From: an uncultured Bacteroidales bacterium
GTDB taxonomy: Bacteria > Bacteroidota > Bacteroidia > Bacteroidales > Bacteroidaceae
NCBI GenBank assembly: GCA_902802285.1
Contig: CADCLI010000001.1
Span: 4,010 to 68,009, forward strand
DNA length: 64,000 nucleotides
Direction of reading: 5' to 3'
Numbering within the stretch: the first letter of the stretch is position 1; every line of letters begins with the position of its first letter. Under the pieces are notes generated by a model that saw only the letters and a list, made by a program, of their open reading frames with translations, ran no database searches and was not told the origin of the DNA. This document shows positions 21,035 through 35,776 of this stretch, in pieces. Both the position numbers and the translations under genes were made by a program.

Positions 21035-21859
21035 ATGAAAGAGATGACTCTTAAGGACATTCAGGATGTATCGCTCCGGATACTCAAGACGGTGCACGGT
21101 TTCTGCGTTGAGAACGGCATCAGGTACTCATTGGCATACGGCACACTGATAGGAGCCGTACGCCATAAGGGGTTTGTCCCATGGGACGATGACCTGGATA
21201 TCATCATGCCAAGGCCGGACTATGACAGGTTCTGCAGTACATTCCGGGCCCAAGGGTATCAGGTGGTCTCCAGACAGAACCGCAAAGACTGCTTTATCCC
21301 CTTTGCCAGGGTCTGTGACACAGTATCCACATGCTTAATGACCATGGAACCATGGATCAGACAGCAGGGTGACCTGGGAGTCTGGATAGACATCTTTCCG
21401 GTCGATGCCGCCCCCGATGACAGGGATGCTTTCCATAATCTGTATCTCAAGGCAAGCCATCATCATGCCAAGTCCATAATGGCACGCAGGCCATTTAGGT
21501 CATTGACCGGAAGCAAGCCTTTAAAGTACAATCTCAACACTATTAAAAAGAGAATCTTTGCCCTGTTCCGGCATTCACCGGAATATCATCTTGACGCAAT
21601 GCAACAGATCATAGGCATGACTCCGTACGGGTCTACCTGCCATCTGGCTCAATTTGCATATCCCGCCAAAGAGGAGTACTTTGACGCCAAGGTTATGGAC
21701 GGATACCATCTTACGGATTTTGAGGACTCAAGGTTCTACGTCATTGACAGATATGACGAATTACTCAGGATGGAGTACGGTGATTATATGACACTGCCTC
21801 CTTTAGACCAGCAGAAACCCCAACAGGATTACATAACAATTTTTTGGAAGGACAAATAA
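21035..21859 (+). CDS. licD: LicD-family phospho(no)-head-group transferase
   Basis: YSLAYGTLIGAVRHKGFVPWDDDLDI and C-terminal EYGDYMTLPP, the LicD/FKTN-type nucleotidyltransferase-fold signature. Confidence 0.8.
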   Translation: MKEMTLKDIQDVSLRILKTVHGFCVENGIRYSLAYGTLIGAVRHKGFVPWDDDLDIIMPRPDYDRFCSTFRAQGYQVVSRQNRKDCFIPFARVCDTVSTCLMTMEPWIRQQGDLGVWIDIFPVDAAPDDRDAFHNLYLKASHHHAKSIMARRPFRSLTGSKPLKYNLNTIKKRIFALFRHSPEYHLDAMQQIIGMTPYGSTCHLAQFAYPAKEEYFDAKVMDGYHLTDFEDSRFYVIDRYDELLRMEYGDYMTLPPLDQQKPQQDYITIFWKDK

Positions 21860-21879: not shown

Positions 21880-23889
21880 ATGAAAGCTATTATACTGAAT
21901 TCAGGATTAGGACACAGGATGGGATCCATTACCGACACCCATCCCAAGTGTATGACTGAGATCTCATCGGACAACACAATCCTGAGCCGTCAGCTCAAGA
22001 AACTGGTGGCATTCGGAATTAACCAGGTGGTAATGACCACGGGATATTATAACAGCATCCTTGAGGAGTACTGCAGCGGCTTGCATCTGCCCATAAGATT
22101 CACCTTTGTAAACAATCCGGTTTACGACAAGACAAATTACATATACAGTATCTATTGCGCCAAGGACCTGCTCAAGGATGATGACGTAATCCTTATGCAC
22201 GGCGACCTGGTGTTTGAGCCGCTGGTATTGGAAGCAATACTCAAAAGCGATGTCAGTTGCATGGCTGTAAGCAGTACACTGCCATTACCTGAGAAAGACT
22301 TCAAAGCCGTTATAAAAGACGGCCGTATAGAGAAAGTAGGCATTGAGTTCTTTGACAATGCTATGGCAGCCCAGCCCCTCTACAAACTGCTTAAGGAGGA
22401 CTGGCTGGTATGGCTTGAGGCTATAGAGCGTTTCTGTGAGAACGATGACCGCAAATGCTATGCCGAGAATGCTTTCAACCAGGTATCGGACCGTTGCCGC
22501 ATCTATCCTGTAGATGTCAGGGATATGCTCTGTGCAGAGATTGACACCCCGCAGGATCTTGAGGTTGTCAGCGCCCGTGTCAAGGAGGTCAACAACCGTA
22601 CGGTCTACATGTGCTGCTCGACCGACTACATTCACAGCGGACACATTGCCATAATAAAAAAAGCCTGCCGTTTGGGCCGATTGACGATTGGTGTACTGTC
22701 AGATGAGGCGGTAGCCAGTTACAAGCGTTATCCGCTGCTTCCGTTTGATGAACGCAAATCGCTGTTTGAGAACATAGCCGGAGTTGAGAAGGTTGTAGAA
22801 CAGAAGTCCCTGAGCTATGCCGATAATTTGAGGCTACTGAAACCTGATTATGTAGTTCATGGTGATGATTGGGTGGAGGGATTCCAGAAACCTATCCGCG
22901 AAGAGGTAATCGGAGTACTTAAGGAGTACGGCGGAAAACTGGTTGAATACCCTTACTCATCGGACCCCAAATACAAACAGCTGGACTCCACCCTGCGTGC
23001 CGAATTGGCTATGCCCGATATGCGCAGAGGGAGACTTCGCAAGCTCATCAGCATGAAGGGACTGGTAACCGCAATGGAAGCCCACAGCGGTATCACAGGT
23101 CTGATAGTTGAGAAAACTACCGTGCTTCAGGACGGCAAGACCTACCAGTTTGACGCCATGTGGATAAGTTCGCTGTGCGACTCCACCGCCAAGGGCAAAC
23201 CCGATATTGAGCTTGTGGATATGACCAGCCGTTTCCGCACCATTGATGACATAATGGAGGTAACCACCAAGCCTATCATATTTGACGGTGATACCGGCGG
23301 ATTGACCGAGCATTTTGTATATACGGTCCGTTCACTTGAACGCATGGGTGTATCTATGGTTATCATTGAGGACAAGACAGGACTCAAGAAAAACTCCCTG
23401 TTCGGCACTGAGGTAAAGCAGACTCAGGATTCAATTGAGAACTTCTGCGAGAAGATAAAAGCCGGAAAGCGTGCCCAGAAGACCAAGGAGTTCATGATAT
23501 GCGCCCGCATTGAGAGCCTCATCCTGGAGCAGGGGATGGAGGATGCACTGAAACGTGCGTTCGCGTTTACCGCCGCCGGAGCCGACGCCATAATGATACA
23601 CTCGCGCAAAAAGGATCCCGCCGAGATATTTGAGTTTGTGGAGAAGTTCCGTAAGGAGAACAAGGTCACCCCGATTGTGGTGGTACCGACATCATTCAAC
23701 ACCGTGACAGAGGATGAGTTCAAACAGCGCGGAGTCAATGTGGTGATTTATGCCAACCAACTGACCCGCACAGGATTCCCCGCCATGCAGGATGCGGCAC
23801 GCACCATACTGGAGAACCACCGCGCCAAGGAGTGCGATGACAAGTGTATGTCAATCAAGGATATAATAACACTTATTCCCGAAGAATAA
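21880..23889 (+). CDS. aepX: Tri-domain fusion: LicC-like NTP-transferase + TagD-like cytidylyltransferase + phosphoenolpyruvate mutase
   Basis: Residues 1 to about 237: MKAIILNSGLGHRMG...FVNNPVYDKTNYIYS, LicC/NTP_transf_3-like. Residues about 240-370: VYMCCSTDYIHSGHIAIIKKA, the HxGH cytidylyltransferase motif. Residues about 375-669: GLVTAMEAHSGITGLI...FDAMWISSLCDSTAKGKPDIELV...IIFDGDTGG...IIEDK, PEP mutase/isocitrate-lyase fold. Confidence 0.85.
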   Translation: MKAIILNSGLGHRMGSITDTHPKCMTEISSDNTILSRQLKKLVAFGINQVVMTTGYYNSILEEYCSGLHLPIRFTFVNNPVYDKTNYIYSIYCAKDLLKDDDVILMHGDLVFEPLVLEAILKSDVSCMAVSSTLPLPEKDFKAVIKDGRIEKVGIEFFDNAMAAQPLYKLLKEDWLVWLEAIERFCENDDRKCYAENAFNQVSDRCRIYPVDVRDMLCAEIDTPQDLEVVSARVKEVNNRTVYMCCSTDYIHSGHIAIIKKACRLGRLTIGVLSDEAVASYKRYPLLPFDERKSLFENIAGVEKVVEQKSLSYADNLRLLKPDYVVHGDDWVEGFQKPIREEVIGVLKEYGGKLVEYPYSSDPKYKQLDSTLRAELAMPDMRRGRLRKLISMKGLVTAMEAHSGITGLIVEKTTVLQDGKTYQFDAMWISSLCDSTAKGKPDIELVDMTSRFRTIDDIMEVTTKPIIFDGDTGGLTEHFVYTVRSLERMGVSMVIIEDKTGLKKNSLFGTEVKQTQDSIENFCEKIKAGKRAQKTKEFMICARIESLILEQGMEDALKRAFAFTAAGADAIMIHSRKKDPAEIFEFVEKFRKENKVTPIVVVPTSFNTVTEDEFKQRGVNVVIYANQLTRTGFPAMQDAARTILENHRAKECDDKCMSIKDIITLIPEE

Positions 23890-23895
23890 ACCGAT

Positions 23896-25026
23896 ATGAT
23901 AAGACCTGAATTCTTTATAGAGGCCCTCAGACAGAAAGGGATTGACTGTTTTGCCGGTGTGCCGGACAGCCTGCTCAAGAACATATGCGCCTACATAACA
24001 GACCACTTTGATGCCAGTCATAACATAATTGCTGCAAATGAAGGTGCTGCCGTAGGATTTGCCGCAGGTCACTATCTGGCCACAGGACAGCCGGCCTGCG
24101 TATATATGCAGAACAGCGGTGAAGGCAACATAATCAACCCTCTGGCATCACTTACAGACCGTGAAGTCTATAACATTCCGGTGCTGTTGCTTATAGGCTG
24201 GCGCGGTCGGCCCGGAGTCCATGACGAGCCCCAGCACGTAAAGCAGGGTAAGGTTACAACCGGTCTGCTCAATGTAATGGGTGTCAACTACGAGGTTCTG
24301 AGCAAAGAAGAGGACAAGGCTGCAAAGCAGATAGAAAAGGCTGCATCGGCACTCCTTGACAACGAGGTCTTTGCCCTGGTGATAGAGAAGGATACGTTTG
24401 ATGAGTACAAACTTCAGAACGTCAATGCCAATGACCTGACCATGACACGTGAAGAGGCTATCCAGACTGTGGCATCGGCCTTATCATCCAAAGACGTGAT
24501 AGTAAGCACCACCGGTATGATAAGCCGTGAGTTGTTTGAAGCACGTGCTGCATGGGGGCAGGGTCACGAACGTGATTTCCTGACAGTAGGCTCAATGGGA
24601 CATGCCAGCCAGATTGCATTAGGGATTGCCTTAGAGAAGACAGACCGTAGGATATGGTGTTTTGACGGTGACGGAGCCACAATAATGCACATGGGTTCAA
24701 TGGCAATAGTGGCCAGCAAGAAACCGGCCAACTACATACACGTGGTATTCAACAACGGAGCCCACGATTCCGTAGGCGGTCAACCAACTGTAGGACTTGC
24801 CATAGACCTTCCGGCAGTAGCCAAAGCCCTGGGTTATTCCGCAGCATTCAGTGTAAGCACCATACAGGAACTAAAATCTCAACTCTCAATTCTCAACTCT
24901 CAATTCTCAGAAGGTCCGGTACTGATTGAAGTAAAGGTAAAGAAAGGCAACCGCAAGGACCTGGGCCGTCCCACCACGACCCCCATAGAGAACAGGGATG
25001 CGCTGATGCAGTTCCTAAAGAAATGA
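23896..25026 (+). CDS. aepY: Phosphonopyruvate decarboxylase (TPP-dependent)
   Basis: 376 aa. Shows the TPP-binding motif CFDGDGATIMHMGS...VFNNGAHDSVGGQ. It lies immediately downstream of PEP mutase. Confidence 0.85.
   Translation: MIRPEFFIEALRQKGIDCFAGVPDSLLKNICAYITDHFDASHNIIAANEGAAVGFAAGHYLATGQPACVYMQNSGEGNIINPLASLTDREVYNIPVLLLIGWRGRPGVHDEPQHVKQGKVTTGLLNVMGVNYEVLSKEEDKAAKQIEKAASALLDNEVFALVIEKDTFDEYKLQNVNANDLTMTREEAIQTVASALSSKDVIVSTTGMISRELFEARAAWGQGHERDFLTVGSMGHASQIALGIALEKTDRRIWCFDGDGATIMHMGSMAIVASKKPANYIHVVFNNGAHDSVGGQPTVGLAIDLPAVAKALGYSAAFSVSTIQELKSQLSILNSQFSEGPVLIEVKVKKGNRKDLGRPTTTPIENRDALMQFLKK
24876..24909 (+). repeat. Imperfect heptanucleotide tract (YTCTCAA)x5 inside aepY
   Basis: The sequence is atctcaa ctctcaa ttctcaa ctctcaa ttctca, encoding SQLSILNSQFS. 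The same ttctcaa unit forms the tails of the dispersed repeat at 19283-19298 (reverse complement) and 47885-47915. Confidence 0.75.
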
Positions 25027-25030
25027 CATT

Positions 25031-26170
25031 ATGCAGAATATAATACAAGGCATAGACAAACTGCAGGATCTGGTCAGGACCATAGGGAGCCGTAAGCTGT
25101 TCATGGTCATAGACTCGTCATACCCGTTCCTTAACATAAAGGATAGGATTGAGGAGATAACCGTGCCTAAGGTCTGTTTCTCTGATTTCAGGCCTAACCC
25201 CCTGTATGAAGACGTGTGCAAAGGCATAGACCTGTTCCATAAGGAGGAGTGCGATGCCATACTGGCCGTAGGCGGCGGCAGCTCCATTGATGTGGCCAAA
25301 TGCATAAAGCTGGCTGTTTTAGCCCGTGAAGGACGTGAAGGGCTTATCCCTCCGCTGGTATCAAAGCGTCTTGATATAGACGGATCACGTATTCCGTTAA
25401 TTGCCATCCCCACAACGGCCGGTACCGGCAGCGAGTCAACCCACAATGCCGTAATGTATTATCAGGGCTCAAAGCAGACCGTAACCAATGACGGCGTCCT
25501 GCCCGATTATGCCCTGCTTGAGCCAAAAGTCCTGGCCACACTACCCCTCTACCAGAAAAAATGCACTATGATGGATGCCCTGTGTCAGGGTATTGAGAGC
25601 TGGTGGTCAGTAAACTCAACCGATGAGAGCAAGGGCTATGCCAAAATAGCAGTGGAACTCATTACCCAATACTGGCGCAAGTACATATTTGACAATGATG
25701 CCGATGCTGCCGCAAACATAATGCTGGCTGCCAACTATGCAGGCCGGGCCATAAACATATCGGCCACAACCGCAGCCCACGCCATGAGCTACAAGATAAC
25801 GTCAATGTACAAACTTCCTCATGGTCACGCAGTCGCAGTCTGCCTCCCGGAGATATGGGAATACATGACAGCCCATCCGGAACACTGCATCGACCCCAGA
25901 GGCAAGGAGTATCTGACCGATATCTTCAACCAAATATCTGAAAGTCTTGGAACAGCCGGACCAAAGGATTCGATAGTCTTTGTCCGCCAAATGATGAAAG
26001 AGATGGATATGGAGAATCCTGTTGCCGTCAACAGGGAACAGGAACTGGGACTGCTTACCGAATCGGTCAATCCGGTCAGACTCAAGAACAACCCGGTGGA
26101 ACTGACACGGGATACTCTATGCAACCTTTATGGTATTATCGTAAAAAGATCCGTTGTATTACATTGTTAA
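25031..26170 (+). CDS. Iron-containing (group III) alcohol dehydrogenase; candidate phosphonoacetaldehyde reductase
   Basis: AVGGGSSIDVAKC, and His-rich metal-site regions (TAAHAMSY, PHGHAVAV). The function is inferred from its position directly after Ppm-Ppd. Confidence 0.7.
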   Translation: MQNIIQGIDKLQDLVRTIGSRKLFMVIDSSYPFLNIKDRIEEITVPKVCFSDFRPNPLYEDVCKGIDLFHKEECDAILAVGGGSSIDVAKCIKLAVLAREGREGLIPPLVSKRLDIDGSRIPLIAIPTTAGTGSESTHNAVMYYQGSKQTVTNDGVLPDYALLEPKVLATLPLYQKKCTMMDALCQGIESWWSVNSTDESKGYAKIAVELITQYWRKYIFDNDADAAANIMLAANYAGRAINISATTAAHAMSYKITSMYKLPHGHAVAVCLPEIWEYMTAHPEHCIDPRGKEYLTDIFNQISESLGTAGPKDSIVFVRQMMKEMDMENPVAVNREQELGLLTESVNPVRLKNNPVELTRDTLCNLYGIIVKRSVVLHC

Positions 26171-26188
26171 ACAAATAACAGAAACACA

Positions 26189-28003
26189 ATGCAGGCAATA
26201 ATATTAGCAGCTGGAATGGGTAAAAGACTTGGTGAACTCACCAAGGATAACACCAAATGCATGATTGAGGTTAATGGGCAAAAGCTTATTGACAGAATGC
26301 TTGGCCAGCTGGCCAAGCTAAATCTGAAAAGAGTTATTATCGTCGTAGGTTATCAAGCCGAAAACCTGATAAACCATTTAGGTCATAGATATGACGATAT
26401 GCTAAATATTGAGTTTGTATTTAACCCTATCTATGATAAGACAAACAATATCTATTCTCTTGCCCTTGCTAAAGAAAAATTGCAGGAAGATGATACCCTC
26501 CTACTGGAAAGCGACTTGATATTTGAAGATCGTATGCTTAGATTGCTTACAGACAATCCATACCCTAATCTGGCTCTGGTGGCCAAATATGAAACATGGA
26601 TGGACGGAACTATGGTACGCATTGACAGCGAAAAAAATATAGTTAGTTTTGTTCCAAAAAAAGCATTCCGGTACAGTGACGTGCCTTACTATTACAAGAC
26701 ATGCAATATTTATAAATTCAGTAAAGAGTTCTCATGTAACCAATACGTTCCGTTTTTGGAAGCATACAGCAAGGCAATGGGCGACAATGAGTATTACGAG
26801 CAAGTTTTGCGCGTAATCACGGCTTTGGACAAATCAACACTCAGGGCTCTTCCCATCACAGACGAAAAATGGTACGAGATTGATGATATTCAGGACCGCG
26901 ACATCGCTGAAATCAAGTTCTCTGTAGGAACAGATATGCTAAAACGTTTCCATCAGTGTTATGGAGGCTACTGGAGATTCCCGCAAATGAAAGATTTCTG
27001 TTATTTAGTCAATCCATTCTTCCCAACAGACCGCATGAAGGATGAATTACGCGCTAATTTTGACACTCTGCTCACAGAATATCCTTCTGGAATGACGGTT
27101 AACTCTCTGCTTGCAGGGAAGTATTTCGGTATTAGACAAGAGTTAGTATGTGTAGGCAACGGTGCAGCCGAACTGATAAAATGTCTTATAGAGAACCACT
27201 GCTCTGGTAAAATCGGTTTCGTATTTCCTACCTTTGAAGAGTACCCTAACCGTACGAACCCGGACAACAGGATAATATTCACTCCTTCCAATCCCGATTT
27301 CAGTTATTCAGCTCACGACCTTAAACAGTTCTTCAAGGATAAGGGAATAAGAAACCTTCTTATCATCAACCCCGACAATCCATCTGGCAATTATATTCCG
27401 TTCAATGAACTGAGACAACTTATTGAGTGGACTGCTGAGAACTCCATCAACCTGATAGTAGATGAAAGTTTTGTCGATTTCACCGACAATCACGCTACTG
27501 CATCCTTGCTTCATAATGATATTCTCCTGTCCAATCCACACCTGACAGTTGTTAAGTCCATAAGCAAATCATATGGAGTTCCTGGACTGAGACTAGGAAT
27601 AGTAGCATCGGGCAATACCGTAATGATGGATGAAATACGCAAAGAGGTGGCCATTTGGAACATCAACTCATTTGCAGAGTTTTATATGCAGATATTCAAC
27701 AAATATGAGAAAGATTTCCTTGAGGCATGTGACAAGTTCATAGCAGAGAGAAGTCTCTTCTTTAAGGAACTTAGCGCCATAACTTTCTTGCGTGTAATAC
27801 CTTCACAGGCCAATTATTTCCTGTGCGAAATCATAGATAAGTACACATCGGCTCAACTTACAGGAAAACTTCTGGAGGAAAGCAATATTCTTATCAAGGA
27901 CTGCGGACAGAAAAGTGCTTTTGCCGGCAAGAACTATATAAGGATTGCCATAAGAGACAGAGAGGACAACAGCAAACTGGTTCAAAAACTAAGAGAACTA
28001 TGA
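26189..28003 (+). CDS. Fusion: LicC-type nucleotidyltransferase + class I/II (HisC/CobD-like) PLP aminotransferase/decarboxylase
   Basis: N-terminal MQAIILAAGMGKRLG...FVFNPIYDKTNNIYS is paralogous to the N-terminus of the Ppm fusion. The C-terminal domain carries NPDNPSGN and the PLP-lysine motif SISKSYGVPGLRLG. Confidence 0.75.
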   Translation: MQAIILAAGMGKRLGELTKDNTKCMIEVNGQKLIDRMLGQLAKLNLKRVIIVVGYQAENLINHLGHRYDDMLNIEFVFNPIYDKTNNIYSLALAKEKLQEDDTLLLESDLIFEDRMLRLLTDNPYPNLALVAKYETWMDGTMVRIDSEKNIVSFVPKKAFRYSDVPYYYKTCNIYKFSKEFSCNQYVPFLEAYSKAMGDNEYYEQVLRVITALDKSTLRALPITDEKWYEIDDIQDRDIAEIKFSVGTDMLKRFHQCYGGYWRFPQMKDFCYLVNPFFPTDRMKDELRANFDTLLTEYPSGMTVNSLLAGKYFGIRQELVCVGNGAAELIKCLIENHCSGKIGFVFPTFEEYPNRTNPDNRIIFTPSNPDFSYSAHDLKQFFKDKGIRNLLIINPDNPSGNYIPFNELRQLIEWTAENSINLIVDESFVDFTDNHATASLLHNDILLSNPHLTVVKSISKSYGVPGLRLGIVASGNTVMMDEIRKEVAIWNINSFAEFYMQIFNKYEKDFLEACDKFIAERSLFFKELSAITFLRVIPSQANYFLCEIIDKYTSAQLTGKLLEESNILIKDCGQKSAFAGKNYIRIAIRDREDNSKLVQKLREL

Positions 28004-29085
28004 TTCCATACAGAATCTGTATATGCGGTGGAGGAAATCTAGCCCATGTGGTGGGCGGATATCTGGCAGCCAAACCCGAGTGTGAGGTAAGGTTGCTAAC
28101 CCGTTATCCGGAAAAATGGCAGCCCGAAGGTATCTTGAAACTTACTGATAACAATGGTAAGATTTTCAATTCAAGATTTACCCTTATAAGCTCAAATCCT
28201 TCCCAGACTATAACAGGAGCCGATATGGTTTTGGTCTGCCTGCCCGGATTCGCAATTGCACAGGTTCTTGAATCAATCAAAGATTACATAAGTAAGGAAA
28301 CTGTAGTAGGTTCTATCGTCTCAAGTACAGGTTTCTTTCTTATGGCTAAAAAGATATTACCTGCCGGAACCAAATTGTTCGGTTTCCAGCGTGTACCCTT
28401 TATAGCCCGAACCAATGAATATGGAAAATCCGCTTCACTTCTTGGTTACAAACCTTCATTGACTTATGCTTCAATGAATATAAACGACATACAAAGTTTT
28501 AGTCGGACTATTTCAGCTCTCTTTGATGTTTCTGTTACATGGCTTGACAGTTATCTCAAGGTTACCCTTACTAACAGTAACCCTTTGTTGCATCCTTGCC
28601 GCCTTTATGGGATGTTCGGAAGAGGAAAAACAGCGTTTGACAAACCAATTCTTTTTTATGAAGAATGGGATAACTTCAGTTCTGAAATGTTAATTGACTG
28701 TGATCTTGAATTTAGACATCTACTTGACAAGTTGGATATCGCCAGAAATGAAATTGTTCCCATTCTAGATTATTATGAGAGTCATGACTCCCTGTCCCTT
28801 ACTGAAAAAATCAGGTCTATCCAGGCTTTCAAAGGACTCCAAGCTCCAATGATACAATTATCTGACGGCTATTATTATCCAGATTGGAATAACAGATATT
28901 TTACTGAAGATATACCTTTTGGGCTTCTAATTATCAAGGCGTTTTGTCGCAAATACGGAATTGACACTCCAAAGATTGACACAATATTGAGATGGGCACA
29001 AACAGGTATGAATAAGCAATACATAGTTGGTAAGGATTTGACCGGAAAAGATATTCATCAAACAATAGTTGACTATGTGGACTGA
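28000..29085 (+). CDS. NAD(P)-dependent oxidoreductase, octopine/nopaline dehydrogenase-like (GpsA-like N-terminal Rossmann domain)
   Basis: Rossmann motif ICICGGGNLAHVVGGYLA, and a central TNSNPLLHPCRLYGMF like the Octopine_DH helical domain. The start overlaps the upstream stop (ATGA at 28000-28003). Confidence 0.55.
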   Translation: MIPYRICICGGGNLAHVVGGYLAAKPECEVRLLTRYPEKWQPEGILKLTDNNGKIFNSRFTLISSNPSQTITGADMVLVCLPGFAIAQVLESIKDYISKETVVGSIVSSTGFFLMAKKILPAGTKLFGFQRVPFIARTNEYGKSASLLGYKPSLTYASMNINDIQSFSRTISALFDVSVTWLDSYLKVTLTNSNPLLHPCRLYGMFGRGKTAFDKPILFYEEWDNFSSEMLIDCDLEFRHLLDKLDIARNEIVPILDYYESHDSLSLTEKIRSIQAFKGLQAPMIQLSDGYYYPDWNNRYFTEDIPFGLLIIKAFCRKYGIDTPKIDTILRWAQTGMNKQYIVGKDLTGKDIHQTIVDYVD

Positions 29086-30325
29086 ATCATTGACATCCTC
29101 TTTCCAGAGTATAATGGCTGCATTGAAACTCAATATCTATGTATGTCTTTATAACTTGCATCTGAAGATCTTACTCCCAAAGATCTCCAAGCATAAACCT
29201 ATTAGGATTATGTTTTATGTCAATAATTTGTCCATGTGGAAAGGAGACAAACTGTTGGATTTACTAAAAAAGGATGATAGATTCGAGCCTTTTGCCGTTT
29301 CATATCTCTACTCATATCATTCCACAAAGGAAAATACAGAATGCGAACAGGAACTATCATCACATTTCAGTTCATTAGGTGTTCGTTATTTTAGTGGCTT
29401 TGATTTTATACGAAACAAAAATATTTCCATTTCCGAGTTTAAACCAGACATCATCTTTTTTCCTCAACCGTACATTAATTACAGATCTGCCATTCCGTTG
29501 AATGCCCTTTTGTCATATATTCCATACGGATTCAGCATAGAAGACTCCAAGAAATTTCATAATTCGTTATATCAGAATGTATGCTGGAAATATTTTGTTA
29601 CAAACCAGTTGCAAAAAGAGTTGAAAACAAAATATAATATAAATCACGGAGTAAATGTCGTCGTTTCAGGAGATCCGTTAGCTGATTATTTCTTTGACGG
29701 ACATACACCATCTTCTGACAGTTGGCCTATCAATAATCCTCAAATCAAAAGGATAATTTGGGCTCCCCACCATTCAATCACTCCACAAGATTGGCTAAAT
29801 TATTCCAACTTTCTGGAAATTGCGGACGATATGCTTAATTTGGCAAAAGAGTACAATGACAAAGCTCAGTTCGTATTCAAGCCCCATCCTATGCTCAAAG
29901 ATAAACTATACAAGCTTGATAGCTGGGGAGTTGAAAAAACCGATTCCTACTTTGACGCATGGAAATCATTACCAAACTGCAATTCTGCAGAAGGTAACTA
30001 CGTTGACCTATTCATGTCTTCTGATGCCATGATTCATGATTGTAGTGCTTTTACTGCTGAATATCTGTATGTAAACAAGCCTGTAATGTATTTGACAAAA
30101 GAAGAAAGAATGGAATCATTCAATCAGTTTGCAAATGAATGTTTCAAGGTACATTATCATGGCTCCTCTATCTCAGACATAAAAAATTTCATCGACAATG
30201 TCATTAAGGGTATAGATCCTTTGGCTGATGAAAGAACAAAATTGATTAAAGAACAATTAAGGCCCAAAGGCAATGAAACAGTTGCCGGAACCATATATAA
30301 GGAACTTTGTAAAATATTTGAATAA
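29069..30325 (+). CDS. CDP-glycerol/polyol-phosphate transferase-like protein (TagB/TagF, Glyphos_transf family)
   Basis: IIWAPHHS and FVFKPHPML resemble the YAPTWR / KxHP motifs of TagB/F enzymes. The start is uncertain (29069, 29114 or later); 29069 overlaps the upstream gene by 17 nt. Confidence 0.6.
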   Translation: MTMWTESLTSSFQSIMAALKLNIYVCLYNLHLKILLPKISKHKPIRIMFYVNNLSMWKGDKLLDLLKKDDRFEPFAVSYLYSYHSTKENTECEQELSSHFSSLGVRYFSGFDFIRNKNISISEFKPDIIFFPQPYINYRSAIPLNALLSYIPYGFSIEDSKKFHNSLYQNVCWKYFVTNQLQKELKTKYNINHGVNVVVSGDPLADYFFDGHTPSSDSWPINNPQIKRIIWAPHHSITPQDWLNYSNFLEIADDMLNLAKEYNDKAQFVFKPHPMLKDKLYKLDSWGVEKTDSYFDAWKSLPNCNSAEGNYVDLFMSSDAMIHDCSAFTAEYLYVNKPVMYLTKEERMESFNQFANECFKVHYHGSSISDIKNFIDNVIKGIDPLADERTKLIKEQLRPKGNETVAGTIYKELCKIFE

Positions 30326-31816
30326 ATGGCAGAAAACCTGAAATCGCAAACCGTAAGAGGTGTATGGTGGAGTTTCCTTGAAAGATATTCCACACAGGGG
30401 GTTTCTTTCCTTATAACCCTATTCATGGCCCGCATCCTTTCTCCAGGCGAATACGGATTAATAGGAATGATTGCCATTTTCATGGCTCTTGGACAGGTTT
30501 TTATTGACGGTGGTTTTGCCAATGCTTTAATCCAGAAAGAGACCCGAACTGAAACCGATTTTTCTACAGTTTTCTGGATAAATGTCTCAATAGGTTTTCT
30601 TTCATATTTAATCCTGTTTTTTGCAGCTCCGATTATTGCGTCTTTCTACAATGAAGAAATACTCATACCCATCATAAAGATTTACGGCCTCAACCTTGTG
30701 TTATCATCGCTTGCCGGCGTAAACAAAGTCAAACTGGTTATTGACATAAACTTCAGGACACAACTAAAGATATCATTGATTTCGGCCATTACCTCAGGCA
30801 TAACAGGTATTATATGTGCATTGAAGGGTTGCGGAGTATGGGCAATCGTAGCACAATCAAACGTAGCCGCAGCTCTTACGGCTGTGCTTAGTTTTGTATT
30901 TGTCAAATGGAAGCCTTCGCTTACTTTTTCACGGGAATCTTTCAAGTCGTTGTTCTCTTTTGGATCCAAACTATTGGTGGCGCAAATCATAAGTACTGCA
31001 TACACATATCTTTATAACATTGTTATTGGCAAGAAATACACAAAGGCGGAATTGGGTTTGTACACTAAAGCCGGTCTGTTTTCACAAATGGTAAGTACAT
31101 ATCTCACATCAGCAATGACCAGAGTTTCCTTCCCCGTTCTTAGTCGAGTTCAAAATGAAGATGACCAACTGATGGGAGCATACAGAAAATTCATAGGTAT
31201 GGTCGCTTTTATTGTCTTTCCTATTGCTCTTGGAGTATGCGGGATGGCCAGACCGCTAATATTGTCGCTTATTACCGAGAAATGGTTGGGTTGTGTACCC
31301 TTTATACAGATTCTGATATTTGCATATCTGTGTGACGGTATTACCATTGTTAATTTGAACCTGCTTTACGTTAAAGGCAAGTCTAATGTGGTTTTGCGTC
31401 TGGAAATCATTAAAAAAACAATTGCTATTACGATGCTATTTATAGCGGCACGATATGGAATAAAAGCTATCTGCTGTAGTCAGGTCATTTATGCAATTAT
31501 TGCTCTGATTCTCAATACAAGGAACACAAAGAAACTCTTGAATTATGGTTTGCTGAGCCAAATCAAGGATTTATTCCCATACTTTATCTGCTCACTTGTC
31601 ATAATGGCAATTGCCCTTGGAATGGACCATTTACTCAATAATAGTTGGATTGTCCTGGGCTTGTGCATTATTATTTGCCCAACGGTTTATCTCCTACTGT
31701 GTTATGCTTTCAATTTAAAAGCATTGAATGAGATGGCCTCAATAATAGCATCTAACCAGTATTGTCCTGGATGGCTCTGCAGGATCCTAGTTAAAATATA
31801 TCCCGAACTGAAATGA
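30326..31816 (+). CDS. wzx: Wzx-type oligosaccharide flippase (MOP superfamily, Polysacc_synt)
   Basis: 496 aa with about 12-14 hydrophobic helices. The N-terminal LKSQTVRGVWWSFLERYSTQGVSFLITLFMARILSPGEYGL is typical of Wzx/RfbX. Confidence 0.8.
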   Translation: MAENLKSQTVRGVWWSFLERYSTQGVSFLITLFMARILSPGEYGLIGMIAIFMALGQVFIDGGFANALIQKETRTETDFSTVFWINVSIGFLSYLILFFAAPIIASFYNEEILIPIIKIYGLNLVLSSLAGVNKVKLVIDINFRTQLKISLISAITSGITGIICALKGCGVWAIVAQSNVAAALTAVLSFVFVKWKPSLTFSRESFKSLFSFGSKLLVAQIISTAYTYLYNIVIGKKYTKAELGLYTKAGLFSQMVSTYLTSAMTRVSFPVLSRVQNEDDQLMGAYRKFIGMVAFIVFPIALGVCGMARPLILSLITEKWLGCVPFIQILIFAYLCDGITIVNLNLLYVKGKSNVVLRLEIIKKTIAITMLFIAARYGIKAICCSQVIYAIIALILNTRNTKKLLNYGLLSQIKDLFPYFICSLVIMAIALGMDHLLNNSWIVLGLCIIICPTVYLLLCYAFNLKALNEMASIIASNQYCPGWLCRILVKIYPELK

Positions 31817-32835
31817 TAATAATACTGCTCATATTACTTGCATTAACCTGTATCGGCTTGAAAAAAGCCGATGACCAGGAAGTGTGTCTTAAAAAAGAGC
31901 ACACTGATGCAATTAAAGGCTTTTTCATTATCATTGTTTTTTACAGTCATATATTACCTTATCTTACTTCATCAGGGGTCAGTTTCTCTCCTGTTTGGGA
32001 TATACCTGCCAATAACGTCATAAAAAAAATAGGACAACTGATGGTTGTTATGTTCCTGTTTTATTCAGGTTATGGAGTGATGGAATCAATACAAAGAAAA
32101 GGCGACAGCTATATACGAGCCATACCGGTAAAAAGAGTCCTTTCAACTTTTATAAACTATTCTATTGCCATATTAGTCTTTCTTTTAATGAACTCATTAT
32201 TGGGCATTCATTATCCTTTTAGACAATATCTATTATCCCTTATAGCATGGGAAAGTGTCGGCCAAAGTAACTGGTACATCTTTGCTATTATTTGCTGCTA
32301 CATTTCTACTTATATATCCTTCCTGCTGTTTAAGGAGAAAAGGATAGCTTTTCTTGCCACTCTATTATTACTCGGCGTATATATTTGCTTGCTTCACGAA
32401 TTTAAAGAAAACTGGTGGTACAATATTATTATGTCATATCCTGCAGGAATGATGATTTCACTTTACAAGAAAAACATTATGCCTTTTTTGGAACAGCGTT
32501 ACATTTTATGCCTTTCAGGACTAACACTGTTATTTGTTTTGCTCTTTCATTACAGGAATTCAACGCCCACTTATTTGGCATGCGCTATAACTTTCGCATA
32601 TCTTGTTTTCGTCATTTCTTATAAATTTGTCGTAAAAAATGCTTTTCTGACATGGTGCGGCAATAATTTATTCCAAATATACGTGTACCAGAGGATTCCT
32701 ATGATAGCTCTTTCAAGCCTATTCCCAGATTTTGTAAGATTGCACCATTATATTTATGTTTTAAGCTGTTTGGCTGTAACTATGCTTTTAGCTATTCTCA
32801 TAAAACCGCTTTCTATTAATCTCAACAACAAATAG
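31813..32835 (+). CDS. Acyltransferase family 3 membrane O-acyltransferase
   Basis: 340 aa, polytopic. DAIKGFFIIIVFYSHIL (the D/N..RG....V...H-type N-terminal motif) and NNLFQIYVYQRI near the C-terminus. Confidence 0.7.
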   Translation: MIIILLILLALTCIGLKKADDQEVCLKKEHTDAIKGFFIIIVFYSHILPYLTSSGVSFSPVWDIPANNVIKKIGQLMVVMFLFYSGYGVMESIQRKGDSYIRAIPVKRVLSTFINYSIAILVFLLMNSLLGIHYPFRQYLLSLIAWESVGQSNWYIFAIICCYISTYISFLLFKEKRIAFLATLLLLGVYICLLHEFKENWWYNIIMSYPAGMMISLYKKNIMPFLEQRYILCLSGLTLLFVLLFHYRNSTPTYLACAITFAYLVFVISYKFVVKNAFLTWCGNNLFQIYVYQRIPMIALSSLFPDFVRLHHYIYVLSCLAVTMLLAILIKPLSINLNNK

Positions 32836-32838
32836 AAA

Positions 32839-33798
32839 ATGCAAAAGCCCATTATTTCAGTAATCGTAGCCATCTACAACGCCCAGAAGACCCTGCCCCG
32901 GTTACTGGACAGCCTTAAGGCACAAACCATGCAGGAATTTGAGGCTTTGCTGATAGATGACGGCAGCACAGATGGCTCTGGTTCAGTGTGTGACCGTTAT
33001 GCCGCATCGGACTCCAGGTTCAAGGCTTTCCACAAGCCCAATGAAGGTATCGGCTCTACACGACAATTCGGAATAGAGCATGCCAGTGGAGAGTATACCA
33101 TTCATGCAGATGCCGATGACTGGGTGGAGCCGGATTATTTGAAGGAGCTCTATGACAAGGCCGTTGAAACTGATGCCGATATGGTCATATGTGATTTTTT
33201 TGTAGAGGACCGGAAAAGAACCATTTACAAGAAGCAAGAGCCTTCTTCATTAGACAGGGATTCAATTATAAACGACCTGTTATGCAAATTAAATGATGGA
33301 CCTTGCAACAAACTCCTTAAACGAAAGACTTATCTGGAACAAAACATTTCGTTTATGAAAGAATTGAATTATGGTGAAGACCAGTTATTTAATCTGCAAC
33401 TAATATGGCAAGGAGCATCTGTCTCTTACTTACCGAAAGCACTTTATCACTATGATGTTTCAGCCAATCCGGATTCTGCCGCACATGGCTATTCGCTCAA
33501 AAAAATACAAACCAGAGAAAAGTTCCTGATTGCACTCAACACTCTTCTGCCTGATAAATTTCAGAATGGTATTGACAATAAATACCTTGAGGTTGCTTAT
33601 ATGGCTGTGCAATCCAAGGAATTCACAAAAGCCCAATACCTAGAAAAGTACTCTTTCCTGTCGCGAGTAAAATACTGGGATTACAAGAATAAGGCTTTTT
33701 CTATCAAACTTGTGACCTGGATATCAATTAATTGTTCCTATCGCCTGGCCATATTCCTCTGTGACGTCAAAAAAGTGATACGTCGATTCCGGCGATAA
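32839..33798 (+). CDS. Glycosyltransferase family 2
   Basis: ISVIVAIYNAQKTLPRLLDSL, LLIDDGSTDGS and HADADDW (DxD). The 5' roughly 400 nt are GC-rich and the remainder is AT-rich. Confidence 0.85.
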   Translation: MQKPIISVIVAIYNAQKTLPRLLDSLKAQTMQEFEALLIDDGSTDGSGSVCDRYAASDSRFKAFHKPNEGIGSTRQFGIEHASGEYTIHADADDWVEPDYLKELYDKAVETDADMVICDFFVEDRKRTIYKKQEPSSLDRDSIINDLLCKLNDGPCNKLLKRKTYLEQNISFMKELNYGEDQLFNLQLIWQGASVSYLPKALYHYDVSANPDSAAHGYSLKKIQTREKFLIALNTLLPDKFQNGIDNKYLEVAYMAVQSKEFTKAQYLEKYSFLSRVKYWDYKNKAFSIKLVTWISINCSYRLAIFLCDVKKVIRRFRR

Positions 33799-33835
33799 AC
33801 TATTATTTATAACTTTGGATATAAAAACTTTTTGA

Positions 33836-34666
33836 ATGCAAGATATTTCTGTTTACAACAAGGAAGGTTCACCTTTACGCAAAGCCCAATTGGCTTCGCT
33901 TGATATTCTCATGGAAATAGATAGGGTGTGCAGGGAGAACAACCTGACTTATTGGATGGATTTCGGAACTCTTTTAGGGGCTATACGTCACAAAGGATTC
34001 GTGCCATGGGATGATGACATAGATATAACCATGCCTATCGATGATTTCAATGAATTTATCCGGATAGGTCAATCAAAACTAAAAAAAGGATTCTTTTTGC
34101 AGACAGAAAAGACAGATCCAGGTTCCAACATGGGTAAAGGTCTTTTCAAAGTACGCATGGACGGAACGTTGTTCATTAACGATTTTGACGATTTTTCAAA
34201 AAGTTACCATAAAGGCATTTCAATTGATGTTTTTGCCGAAGAACCATATCCCACTGTTTCTCCACGATTCCTGAACTTCATAAGAAAACGCATAAGCAAG
34301 GCTTTTGGCTTTTTTCATTATAACATAAAACTGAATTTCAAGAATATCGTCTCATACTTTTGCTTTCCAATTTCATATCTCTTTTTTAAAGGTCTGTGGA
34401 TTGTTATCTGCGCTTTGAAAAAGACAGACCGTGAATTTGTCAAGATAGAACGGGTGACCTACGGATATCCTACCCTGAGGACCGACATGTTACCGGTAAG
34501 TCAGATAGAGTTTGAAGGACATATGTTCAATGCTCCAAAAGTTCCGGAAGCAAGACTCAAAAACATATACGGAGACTACATGACCATCCCTCCTGTCGAA
34601 AAACAACGGATTCACGCCAAATTCATAAGCACGGATATTACAGATAATTACGTAAATCTTGATTAA
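33836..34666 (+). CDS. licD: LicD-family phospho(no)-head-group transferase (second paralog)
   Basis: YWMDFGTLLGAIRHKGFVPWDDDIDI and IYGDYMTIPP. It is paralogous to 21035..21859. Confidence 0.8.
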   Translation: MQDISVYNKEGSPLRKAQLASLDILMEIDRVCRENNLTYWMDFGTLLGAIRHKGFVPWDDDIDITMPIDDFNEFIRIGQSKLKKGFFLQTEKTDPGSNMGKGLFKVRMDGTLFINDFDDFSKSYHKGISIDVFAEEPYPTVSPRFLNFIRKRISKAFGFFHYNIKLNFKNIVSYFCFPISYLFFKGLWIVICALKKTDREFVKIERVTYGYPTLRTDMLPVSQIEFEGHMFNAPKVPEARLKNIYGDYMTIPPVEKQRIHAKFISTDITDNYVNLD

Positions 34667-34678
34667 AACTTCTCTGTT

Positions 34679-35776
34679 ATGAAGCAATACGACTATCTGA
34701 TAATAGGAGCCGGCCTCTTTGGCAGCATGTTTGCATTCCGCGCACGCAAGGCCGGTAAAAAATGTCTTGTAATTGACCGCAACCCGCATATCGGAGGAGG
34801 ATGCTACACTGAACAGATTAACGGTATTAATGTTCACAAATACGGTCCTCATATATTTCATACATCAAACAAACAGGTGTGGGATTTCATGAACGGTCTG
34901 GTTCCGTTCAATAATTTCATAAACTCCCCTATTGCCTGTTACAAGGGTAAGCGTTACAACCTGCCTTTCAACATGAACACTTTCCACCAGCTGTGGGGTG
35001 TTAACAATCCAGATGAGGCCAAGGCAATCATTGAAAGCCAAAGGGCCGAATATGCTGACATAGAGGAGCCTGCTAACCTAGAGGAACAGGCGCTCAAACT
35101 GGCCGGACGTGATATATATGAGACACTTGTCAAGGGTTACTCCGAGAAGCAATGGGGAATGAAAGCCACAGAGATACCAGCATTCGTCATCCGTAGACTG
35201 CCTTTCAGATTCGAGTTCAACAACAACTATTTCAACGACACCTTTCAGGGTATTCCCATAGGCGGTTACACTAAAATCTTTGAGAAACTGTTACAAGGTT
35301 GTGAGGTCAGGTTGGAAACGGAGTATTTTGAGAACAGGGAGTATTTTGACGGCTTGGCCGATAAGATAGTCTATACTGGTCAGATCGATGCTTTCTTCAA
35401 CTACCGATTTGGTGAACTTGATTTCCGTTCGCTATGTTTTGAGCATAAGGTATTGGAAGGTGTCAAGGATTTCCAAGGCAATGCCGTTGTCAACTATACC
35501 GAGGCTGAGATTCCTTACACACGGTGCATAGAGCACAAACACTTTGAATTCGGCAGGCAACCCGATACAGTCATAACATACGAGTATTCACGTAAATGGG
35601 AGAAAGGTGCTGCACCCTATTATCCCATAAACAATGACCGAAACAATGATGTGTTTGCCAGGTACGCCCAACTGGCCGCAAAAGAAAAGAACGTAATATT
35701 TGGCGGCCGTCTTGCGGAGTATAAGTATTACGATATGCACCAGATCGTTGAGAAAGTACTGGGAATGGAAATATGA
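34679..35776 (+). CDS. glf: UDP-galactopyranose mutase
   Basis: FAD motif YDYLIIGAGLFGSMFA, then VHKYGPHIFHT and GRLAEYKYYDMHQ. Confidence 0.9.
   Translation: MKQYDYLIIGAGLFGSMFAFRARKAGKKCLVIDRNPHIGGGCYTEQINGINVHKYGPHIFHTSNKQVWDFMNGLVPFNNFINSPIACYKGKRYNLPFNMNTFHQLWGVNNPDEAKAIIESQRAEYADIEEPANLEEQALKLAGRDIYETLVKGYSEKQWGMKATEIPAFVIRRLPFRFEFNNNYFNDTFQGIPIGGYTKIFEKLLQGCEVRLETEYFENREYFDGLADKIVYTGQIDAFFNYRFGELDFRSLCFEHKVLEGVKDFQGNAVVNYTEAEIPYTRCIEHKHFEFGRQPDTVITYEYSRKWEKGAAPYYPINNDRNNDVFARYAQLAAKEKNVIFGGRLAEYKYYDMHQIVEKVLGMEI

Follow-up and report, generated by a model that had tools for sequence, protein, structure and literature searches.

In the window analysed here, a stretch of 64,000 nucleotides of contig CADCLI010000001.1 from an uncultured Bacteroidales bacterium, one gene encodes a 669-residue protein that joins a LicC/PntC-type nucleotidyltransferase (NTase) domain, a cytidylyltransferase-like (CyTase-like) domain resembling that of Fom1, and a phosphoenolpyruvate (PEP) mutase (Ppm). 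The results modestly favor a reading in which the N-terminal domain makes the cytidine monophosphate conjugate of 2-hydroxyethylphosphonate (CMP-HEP), and in which the middle domain, though kept under selection, is probably a non-catalytic relic of a Fom1-type enzyme that was displaced by the LicC-type enzyme. The Fom1-type domain loses a cytidine triphosphate (CTP)-binding signature wherever a LicC-type transferase is present, which points to non-orthologous displacement. Decoration of cell surfaces with phosphonates is widespread, although little is understood of its later steps. Among phosphonate clusters that contain more than one nucleotidyltransferase, the triple fusion is the most extreme case, and displacement of one enzyme by another, with the old domain kept for a different role, is a testable account of such coexisting modules.

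The fusion gene is an ATG-initiated open reading frame (ORF) of 669 codons and a stop, with no internal stops. Pfam places three modules on the product without overlap, each above its gathering score: NTP_transf_3 (PF12804, 33.1 bits versus 27) and NTP_transferase (PF00483, 31.9 versus 21.2) at residues 2–122, CTP_transf_like (PF01467, 47.5 versus 21) at residues 249–343, and PEP_mutase (PF13714, 191 versus 31.5) at residues 386–644. The original prediction, made by reading the DNA, had proposed a LicC-like domain, an HxGH cytidylyltransferase and a PEP mutase in one uninterrupted frame. The ORF and the Pfam domains bear out both the modules and their order, and the strings on which the proposal was built are all present (GLGHRMG at residues 9–15, NPVYDKTNYIYS at residues 79–90 and CCSTDYIHSGH at residues 245–255). 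The concern raised with it, that the first 237 residues might not be a nucleotidyltransferase, is answered at the sequence level by the PF12804 and PF00483 scores. By sequence criteria the C-terminal domain is a PEP mutase: it scores 410 bits against the NCBIfam equivalog TIGR02320 (cutoff 319.55), contains the Ppm-specific motif EDKxxxxxNS, and is encoded in an operon with phosphonopyruvate decarboxylase (Ppd). Conservation was read from an alignment of 72 triple fusions from two phyla. The xGLKKNS part of the Ppm motif is nearly invariant in these homologues, which were themselves extracted with the EDK…NS pattern. Since residues 1–13 are conserved across phyla, the ATG at 21880 appears to be the true start. 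Several near-identical database entries begin instead at Met14 (656 residues), a probably mis-called start that drops the GLGHR nucleotide-binding loop.

The architecture is already known and is not a discovery. Rice et al. 2019 (Nat Commun 10:3698, PMC6697681) inventoried 1485 non-redundant RefSeq Ppm proteins and found Ppm fused to PF12804 in 33% and to PF01467 in 23.6%, together with 42 "triple fusions" of PF12804, PF01467 and PF13714 (2.8%). The window protein fits their definition exactly, with the three Pfam domains and EDKxxxxxNS. The inventory agrees with the statement in the original prediction that two-domain Ppm fusions with either transferase type exist. The description of the triple fusion as unusual holds as a statement of frequency, but is overstated for an arrangement that has been published and is common in rumen and gut genomes. 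For the triple fusions, Rice et al. give a count only and do not address motif states, substrate or which domain is active; they also remarked, without explaining it, that many phosphonate clusters contain more than one nucleotidyltransferase. A literature search for a characterized triple fusion, a LicC-type HEP cytidylyltransferase or a rumen phosphonoglycan returned only Rice et al. 2019 and Li & Horsman 2022. To the published triple fusions the present analysis adds one tight clade, a link to HEP rather than to 2-aminoethylphosphonate (AEP), and a CyTase domain that lacks the GISST motif. What is new is the testable account of two coexisting transferase modules and a candidate, and probable, HEP-specific subfamily of PntC.

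The middle domain and its missing CTP-binding signature

The middle domain is most similar to the CyTase domain of Fom1 (PDB 5X3D; E 1.3e-41, 54% identity). An AlphaFold model was built from residues 1–385 with a shallow alignment (24 sequences of at least 76% identity); its mean pLDDT was 60, and only the middle domain, with pLDDT 70–94, was usable. In Foldseek this domain superimposes on HEP-CMP-bound 5X3D with a target-normalized TM score of 0.92 and an rmsd of 1.5 Å. The domain had been called TagD-like. That label stands at the level of the family, since the domain shares the Rossmann-like fold and HxGH with TagD/TarD, the glycerol-3-phosphate cytidylyltransferases of the GCT/CCT/ECT family. 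Fom1 is far closer (54% versus 21–23% identity), however, and "Fom1-like" replaces it here on the strength of both the sequence and the fold match to 5X3D.

Two conserved motifs bind CTP in this family, HxGH and RTxGISTT, and His14, His17 and Arg113 of TagD are essential (PMC8262930). The first motif is intact in the triple fusions, in which HSGH (residues 252–255) is invariant. The second is absent. The Fom1 sequence PYTPGISSTR aligns to PYSSDPKYKQ of the window protein, within PYSSDPKYKQLDSTL (residues 358–372), and the site is motif-less and variable in all triple fusions (SSDPKYKQ, SNNPMYKE, SKTDTYLE or TNDEKLKE, for example). The absence of the GISST signature advises against classing the middle domain as a functional cytidylyltransferase before it has been assayed. 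Most of 65 CyTase-bearing representatives carry YT.GISST. It is missing from the triple-fusion clade, from the two-domain proteins closest to it (P0122, P0124, P0133, P0144 and P0196), and also from P0125, P0129 and P0123. In five CyTase-Ppm proteins of about 430 residues (P0132, P0137, P0152, P0155 and P0179), both HxGH and GISST are degenerate and the domain is nevertheless retained. The persistence of such domains on Ppm proteins means that the recurrent loss of catalytic signatures argues for a structural role.

The middle domain is not decaying. From 59 sequence pairs, dN/dS is approximately 0.085 for the middle domain, 0.07 for the linker and 0.041 for Ppm, compared to 0.205 for the former GISST site, where selection is apparently relaxed. 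Invariant residues include R283, E291/R292, Q308, the flanking HG and DW of HGDDW, and Q336/R340. By sequence alignment, K282 (at least 90% of sequences) and R283 (all) fall on the segment of TagD Lys44/Lys46, residues that bind substrate and alpha-phosphates (PMC8262930). The possibility that the domain is simply degenerating was therefore dropped.

NTase and CyTase-like domains are also paired without Ppm. P0129 (375 residues; locus L082, 562–1689) is an NTase-CyTase protein, and P0125 (751 residues; locus L083, 8001–10256) is an NTase-CyTase fused to an iron-dependent alcohol dehydrogenase (Fe-ADH), in a cluster that also encodes a CyTase-Ppm protein and four LicD proteins. A separate observation concerns P0123 (585 residues), in which a decayed N-terminal domain lacking GxGxR precedes CyTase-Ppm.

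A close characterized counterpart of the window protein is Fom1 of Streptomyces wedmorensis. In both, a CyTase-like domain lies immediately N-terminal to Ppm, and both have Ppd and Fe-ADH partners for HEP. Fom1 has PYTPGISSTR and is a proven HEP cytidylyltransferase, whereas the window protein has PYSSDPKYKQ and an additional LicC-type domain. Fom1 feeds an antibiotic pathway (methylation by Fom3), whereas the window cassette lies in a surface-glycan locus with LicD and Wzx. Unlike TagD/TarD, the middle domain also lacks RTxGISTT.

The N-terminal domain and its probable substrate

The N-terminal region is a full NTase domain that extends beyond the Pfam match, as PDB 4JD0 aligns to residues 2–227 and the NF041135 model to residues 1–229. 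Among PDB sequences the best match is LicC (1JYK, E 2.4e-7); Tde-PntC matches with E 5.5e-7, at low identity. PntC proteins have the consensus GXG(T/S)RX4-8PK, and alanine at Arg15 or Lys25 of Tde-PntC reduces activity to less than 10%. The window motif GLGHRx8PK keeps the equivalent Arg13 and Lys23, with His replacing T/S, a position that varies across the triple fusions (H, R, Q or S). Gly9, Gly11, Arg13, Lys23, MHGD (residues 106–109) and EIDTPxDL (residues 220–227) are invariant, and dN/dS of the domain is approximately 0.080. The N-terminal domain keeps all catalytic residues and looks competent.

The substrate is suggested in part by one residue. Glu104 of Tde-PntC and Asp105 of LicC contact the amine of AEP or choline. 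At this position the window protein has His107, which is invariant in 20 of 20 clade representatives and in 72 of 72 triple fusions. The N-terminal domain thus lacks the acidic amine-contact residue that marks specificity for AEP or phosphocholine and, because His107 is invariant, is not to be filed as an AEP-type PntC or a LicC orthologue. A neutral His would fit a substrate bearing a hydroxyl. Two residues further on, Asp109 lines up with Asp in the ESD motif of Tde-PntC and is assumed to have a metal-binding role. In contrast to His107, a second NTase encoded in the window, which is fused to a pyridoxal-phosphate (PLP) enzyme, reads LLLESD, with Glu at the position that contacts the amine. 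In L084, an AEPT-containing cluster, the stand-alone NTase has CEADLY in the corresponding stretch; this sequence lies outside the alignment.

Gene fusions tie the NTase clade to HEP. Among the nearest relatives of the N-terminal domain outside the triple fusions, NTase-Fe-ADH fusions without a CyTase domain were predicted and then confirmed with Pfam in four separate 50%-identity clusters (P0199, P0226, P0242 and P0266; 589–616 residues), and their NTase is 49–57% identical to the N-terminal domain of the window protein. These proteins are a Rosetta-stone link between the NTase clade and an HEP-making enzyme. The signatures ILNSGxGxRMG, TNYIYS, [LM]HGDL and KDFKA are shared by 20 of 20 clade representatives.

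Gene context leads to the same substrate. A scan with one genome per species gave 569 relatives, and locus statistics use the best 80 (L001–L080). Of these 80 related loci, 76 have Ppd and 75 have Fe-ADH, and only the fusion, Ppd and Fe-ADH travel together. The window Ppd gene begins 7 nucleotides past the fusion ORF; the best NCBIfam match of the window Fe-ADH is TIGR03405 (Phn_Fe-ADH), below its cutoff. In comparisons with the window genes, neither a homologue of AEP transaminase nor a choline-pathway gene was detected in the 80 related loci, and a scan of the locus genes revealed neither a choline kinase nor a choline transporter. Because the fusion, Ppd and Fe-ADH are conserved without an AEP transaminase homologue, the cassette is predicted to specify the route from PEP through phosphonopyruvate and phosphonoacetaldehyde to HEP. 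AEP was considered as the product of the conserved cassette and dropped on the same evidence, although the additional NTase-PLP enzyme of the window might still make an amino compound. The same three enzyme types are found in fosfomycin biosynthesis as Fom1, Fom2 and FomC, and the CyTase domain of Fom1 makes HEP-CMP. HEP would then be the substrate of the N-terminal domain.

The N-terminal domain was also compared with characterized enzymes. PntC (Tde1415 PntC-AEPT, PDB 6PD1/6PD2; Ari1348) and the N-terminal domain share the LicC fold, GXGxRX8PK and the catalytic Arg and Lys, and both occur in phosphonate clusters with LicD-type transferases. However, characterized PntCs prefer AEP, and Glu104 and Glu196 of Tde1415 contact the AEP amine, whereas the window clade has the invariant His at the position of Glu104. 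The clade is also associated with Fe-ADH, and hence HEP, rather than with an AEP transaminase as in PntC-AEPT. LicC of Streptococcus pneumoniae, a CTP:phosphocholine cytidylyltransferase, works with LicD by the same logic of activation as a CMP/CDP conjugate and subsequent transfer. Unlike LicC, the N-terminal domain is fused to phosphonate synthesis and has His107 in place of Asp105.

A displacement model and its alternatives

Displacement makes a two-part prediction: a cluster with a LicC-type NTase should have a defective CyTase on Ppm, and a cluster with an intact CyTase should have no such NTase. All 85 loci with a defective CyTase carry a LicC-type NTase. They comprise the 80 triple fusions, in which GISST is lost and the NTase is in cis, and five others: L085 (CyTase PYSQGNGIEQ) and L088 (PYARDEKYAA), each with an NTase-Fe-ADH; L083 (PYTWNEIVAK) with an NTase-CyTase-Fe-ADH; L084 (PYTVGDDVRR) with a stand-alone NTase and AEPT; and L173, in which HxGH is broken to HPGI, with a 251-residue NTase. 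A LicC-type NTase was found in none of the 84 motif-intact loci (L089, L091–L170, L171, L176 and L177). The metagenomic loci L091–L170, searched by blastp at E<1e-8 over at least 100 residues, all carry HxGH and YT.G[IVF]SS[ST], with Fe-ADH in 59 and Ppd in 70 of the 80. Fisher's exact test gives P = 3e-47 with raw locus counts. Collapsing the triple fusions to a single lineage and restricting the controls to the 24 well-flanked loci still gives P = 4e-5. The nearest two-domain relative, P0122, is motif-defective and lies on a 3.7-kb contig with no NTase in view, which is uninformative; the gene upstream of it resembles DAHP synthase by eye only. The contigs of P0129 and P0133 are too short for context.

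The order of events is suggested by a neighbor-joining tree of the CyTase and Ppm region, in which the triple fusions form one clade nested in a lineage that has kept HxGH and lost GISST. Their sister is the CyTase-Ppm protein of L088, whose gene has an NTase-Fe-ADH gene directly downstream. This nesting suggests that the motif was lost before a single fusion event, followed by spread between phyla.

It is reasonable to propose that the cassette makes and activates HEP for the decoration of a surface glycan. The Ppm domain would convert PEP to phosphonopyruvate, and Ppd, by forming phosphonoacetaldehyde, would pull the unfavorable Ppm equilibrium forward. Fe-ADH would reduce phosphonoacetaldehyde to HEP, which the LicC/PntC-type domain is predicted to convert, with CTP, to CMP-HEP. 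The adjacent LicD may then transfer the phosphonyl group from CMP-HEP onto a polysaccharide, for whose assembly and export the downstream glycosyltransferases and the Wzx flippase are presumably responsible. The likely ancestor of the middle domain is the HEP cytidylyltransferase domain of a Fom1-like CyTase-Ppm enzyme; arrival of a LicC-type transferase in the cluster would have been followed by loss of GISST, the nucleotide-phosphate signature. The domain has remained under purifying selection, probably inactive, with HxGH and the basic residues intact. One candidate for its retained role is dimerization or docking; GCT-family enzymes dimerize through the RYVDEVI region (PMC8262930). Another is binding of CTP or CMP-HEP for regulation or hand-off, since HxGH and the basic residues are kept and the phosphate-binding motif is gone.

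A more specific version of this proposal is put forward tentatively, as plausible but a little short of probable. The middle domain may be a conserved pseudo-cytidylyltransferase whose catalytic job passed, within one biosynthetic unit, to an unrelated LicC-fold enzyme of a new HEP-specific PntC subfamily (ILNSGxGxRMG...TNYIYS...LHGDL...KDFKA), and which was kept as a dimerization/docking module, or as a module sensing CMP-phosphonate or CTP, to assemble or regulate a metabolon of Ppm, NTase and Fe-ADH. If true, this would explain the recurring dead CyTase domains on Ppm, as well as the NTase-CyTase pairs in which Ppm is separate.

The original prediction had taken the two transferase domains to mean that two activation chemistries are channeled or co-regulated with phosphonate synthesis. 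This is probably wrong. The loss of GISST, the strict co-occurrence of defective CyTase with LicC-type NTase, and the fusion of the N-domain clade to Fe-ADH suggest a single activation chemistry, leading to CMP-HEP, in which the LicC type replaced the Fom1 type.

It is unlikely, but worth serious consideration, that both transferase domains are active and the protein is trifunctional, acting on two substrates, or on HEP with two nucleotides, to give two activated donors. Purifying selection is similar in the two domains (dN/dS near 0.08), HSGH, K282 and R283 are conserved, the fold of the middle domain is very close to that of HEP-CMP-bound Fom1, and the NTase-CyTase pair persists where Ppm is separate. 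Moreover, the two LicD genes and a TagF-like gene at the window locus could use more than one donor. However, the GISST signature is absent and its site variable, and a pattern in which the defective CyTase always accompanies a LicC-type NTase and the intact one never does indicates replacement, not complementation. The conserved cassette provides one obvious substrate, HEP, and the NTase-Fe-ADH fusions manage without a CyTase domain in the same polypeptide. Neither the second LicD gene nor the TagF-like gene is conserved with the fusion, and both are better matched to the separate NTase-PLP enzyme.

It is improbable that the roles are reversed, with the middle domain making CMP-HEP and the N-terminal domain activating phosphocholine, AEP, an amino-alcohol phosphate or a sugar-1-phosphate for the same glycan. 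The closest characterized relative of the middle domain is indeed the HEP cytidylyltransferase of Fom1, and the LicC-family enzymes characterized so far use phosphocholine or AEP. Yet four independent clusters have an NTase of the N-domain clade joined directly to Fe-ADH, His replaces the acidic residue that contacts the amine, the related loci gave no match to an AEP transaminase or choline-pathway gene in the comparison with window genes, and the middle domain is without its GISST signature.

Several points weigh against displacement and a catalytically silent middle domain. An invariant HxGH and strong purifying selection are equally expected of an active enzyme. Some change in RTxGISTT is tolerated, since Fom1 has no Arg in this motif, and another residue might compensate for the loss of GISST. 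The dN/dS values are approximate because dS is near saturation (~1). The specificity of the N-terminal domain for HEP rests on gene fusion, gene context and one residue, and this domain was poorly modeled by AlphaFold, with low confidence. The loci of the co-occurrence test are not phylogenetically independent, one clade (57–68% identity to P0126) makes up most of the motif-intact controls, and many of the control contigs are short. The neighbor-joining tree is unbootstrapped, and the literature searched reports no enzyme assay of any triple fusion.

Distribution and genomic surroundings

The triple fusion is widely distributed. A 669-residue product occurs in more than 120 protein clusters at 84–100% identity from NCBI, ENA, JGI and Logan assemblies, and the best 80 of the 569 relatives are all full length and 74–96% identical. 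Carriers among these 80 are rumen and gut Bacteroidales (including Prevotella and the isolate Xylanibacter ruminicola D31d) and Clostridia (including Oscillospiraceae, Christensenellaceae and the cultured Lachnospiraceae isolate LC2019). That the ORF is a mis-assembly or frameshift artefact joining separate genes, the other concern attached to the original prediction, has a negligible probability: split arrangements of the same domains do occur in other organisms, but no support for an artefact was found, the product recurs in four independent data sources and at full length in 80 of 80 loci including cultured isolates, conservation extends across the domain junctions, and purifying selection acts on every segment. 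The artefact was accordingly dropped as an explanation.

In a 50% clustering of 1.8 billion proteins the full-length architecture has one representative, P0121, and is therefore a single tight family. The fusion protein is 75–79% identical between Bacteroidales (L001–L035) and Clostridia (L036–L080), an identity that implies horizontal transfer of the triple fusion between phyla. The order of the cassette is fusion-Ppd-ADH in Bacteroidales and fusion-ADH-Ppd in Clostridia. Between the same two sets of loci, Ppd and Fe-ADH are only 43–56% identical and in reversed order, which suggests that the fusion gene crossed between phyla with some independence from its partners. X. ruminicola D31d has two full-length copies (L016, NZ_FNRF01000003.1, and L019, NZ_FNRF01000004.1), each followed by Ppd and Fe-ADH. 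The analysis suggests that Bacteroidales and Clostridia of the rumen and gut commonly decorate glycans with HEP and have shared this trait horizontally, and cultured carriers such as D31d make this reading testable.

In the window, the housekeeping genes for BacA, TruB, QueA and HPPK precede the glycan locus, which starts with the LicD gene at 21035 (Table 1). A LicD-like gene is near 35 of the 80 related loci. Downstream of the fusion are genes for Ppd, Fe-ADH, the NTase-PLP fusion, an octopine-dehydrogenase-like protein, a TagF-like protein and Wzx, as well as acyltransferases, glycosyltransferases, a second LicD, Glf and a GHMP kinase.

Table 1. Positions in the window of the fusion gene, its domains and motifs, and the adjacent cassette genes
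Feature	Position	Strand	Basis
Triple-fusion ORF (NTase / CyTase-like / Ppm), 669 aa	21880..23889	+	ORF reading, Pfam, NCBIfam
N-terminal domain, LicC/PntC-type NTase, "HGD" clade, predicted HEP cytidylyltransferase (aa 1–237)	21880..22590	+	PF12804, PF00483; PDB 1JYK, 6PD1, 4JD0; clade signatures
GLGHRx8PK (aa 9–23), pyrophosphate / alpha-phosphate site	21904..21948	+	GXG(T/S)RX4-8PK consensus
MHGD (aa 106–109)	22195..22206	+	Alignment with Tde-PntC
EIDTPQDL (aa 220–227), C-terminal acidic motif conserved in NTase fold	22537..22560	+	Alignments
Middle domain, Fom1-type HxGH CyTase-like (aa 241–372)	22600..22995	+	PF01467; PDB 5X3D; Foldseek
HSGH (aa 252–255), HxGH signature	22633..22644	+	72-sequence alignment
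PYSSDPKYKQLDSTL (aa 358–372), site of PYT.GISST in Fom1 and most CyTase-Ppm	22951..22995	+	Alignments, dN/dS
Linker (aa 373–385), ...MPDMRRGRLRK, conserved, common to two-domain CyTase-Ppm proteins	22996..23034	+	Alignments
PEP mutase domain (aa 386–669)	23035..23886	+	PF13714; TIGR02320
EDKTGLKKNS (aa 497–506), Ppm-specific EDKxxxxxNS	23368..23397	+	Motif reading
LicD-family phosphotransferase, predicted HEP-phosphonyl transfer from CMP-HEP to glycan	21035..21859	+	PF04991, E 7.6e-41
Phosphonopyruvate decarboxylase (Ppd)	23896..25026	+	TIGR03297 equivalog, 515 bits versus cutoff 312.5
Fe-dependent alcohol dehydrogenase, predicted phosphonoacetaldehyde reductase making HEP (PhpC/FomC-like role)	25031..26170	+	PF00465, PF25137

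Two genes at 26189–29085 (+) sit between the Fe-ADH and TagF-like genes of the window and are missing from all 80 related loci; in the closest loci (L001–L004) the TagF-like gene directly follows Fe-ADH. The first encodes the 604-residue NTase-PLP fusion, a LicC-type NTase joined to a CobD/HisC-like PLP enzyme, whose best NCBIfam match is threonine-phosphate decarboxylase, below the cutoff. The second encodes the octopine-dehydrogenase/ApbA-like protein. Between them, the two products could provide a second activated head group that bears an amine, for example an amino-alcohol phosphate or AEP. The second LicD-family gene, at 33836–34666 (+), adjoins GT2 and Glf genes. With two LicD genes and two motif-intact LicC-type NTases in the locus, phospho or phosphono head groups of two kinds may be present on the glycan. 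The GC fraction is about 0.49 at 14–26 kb, which includes the phosphonate cassette, and falls to 0.355–0.41 across 26000–35000, as if the downstream portion of the glycan locus were a variable segment exchanged on its own.

Finally, a small APS-kinase-like gene (PF01583) lies beside CyTase-Ppm in L085 (9911–10429), L171 (7448–7999) and L177 (4188–4733). It occurs in unrelated clusters, motif-intact and motif-defective alike.

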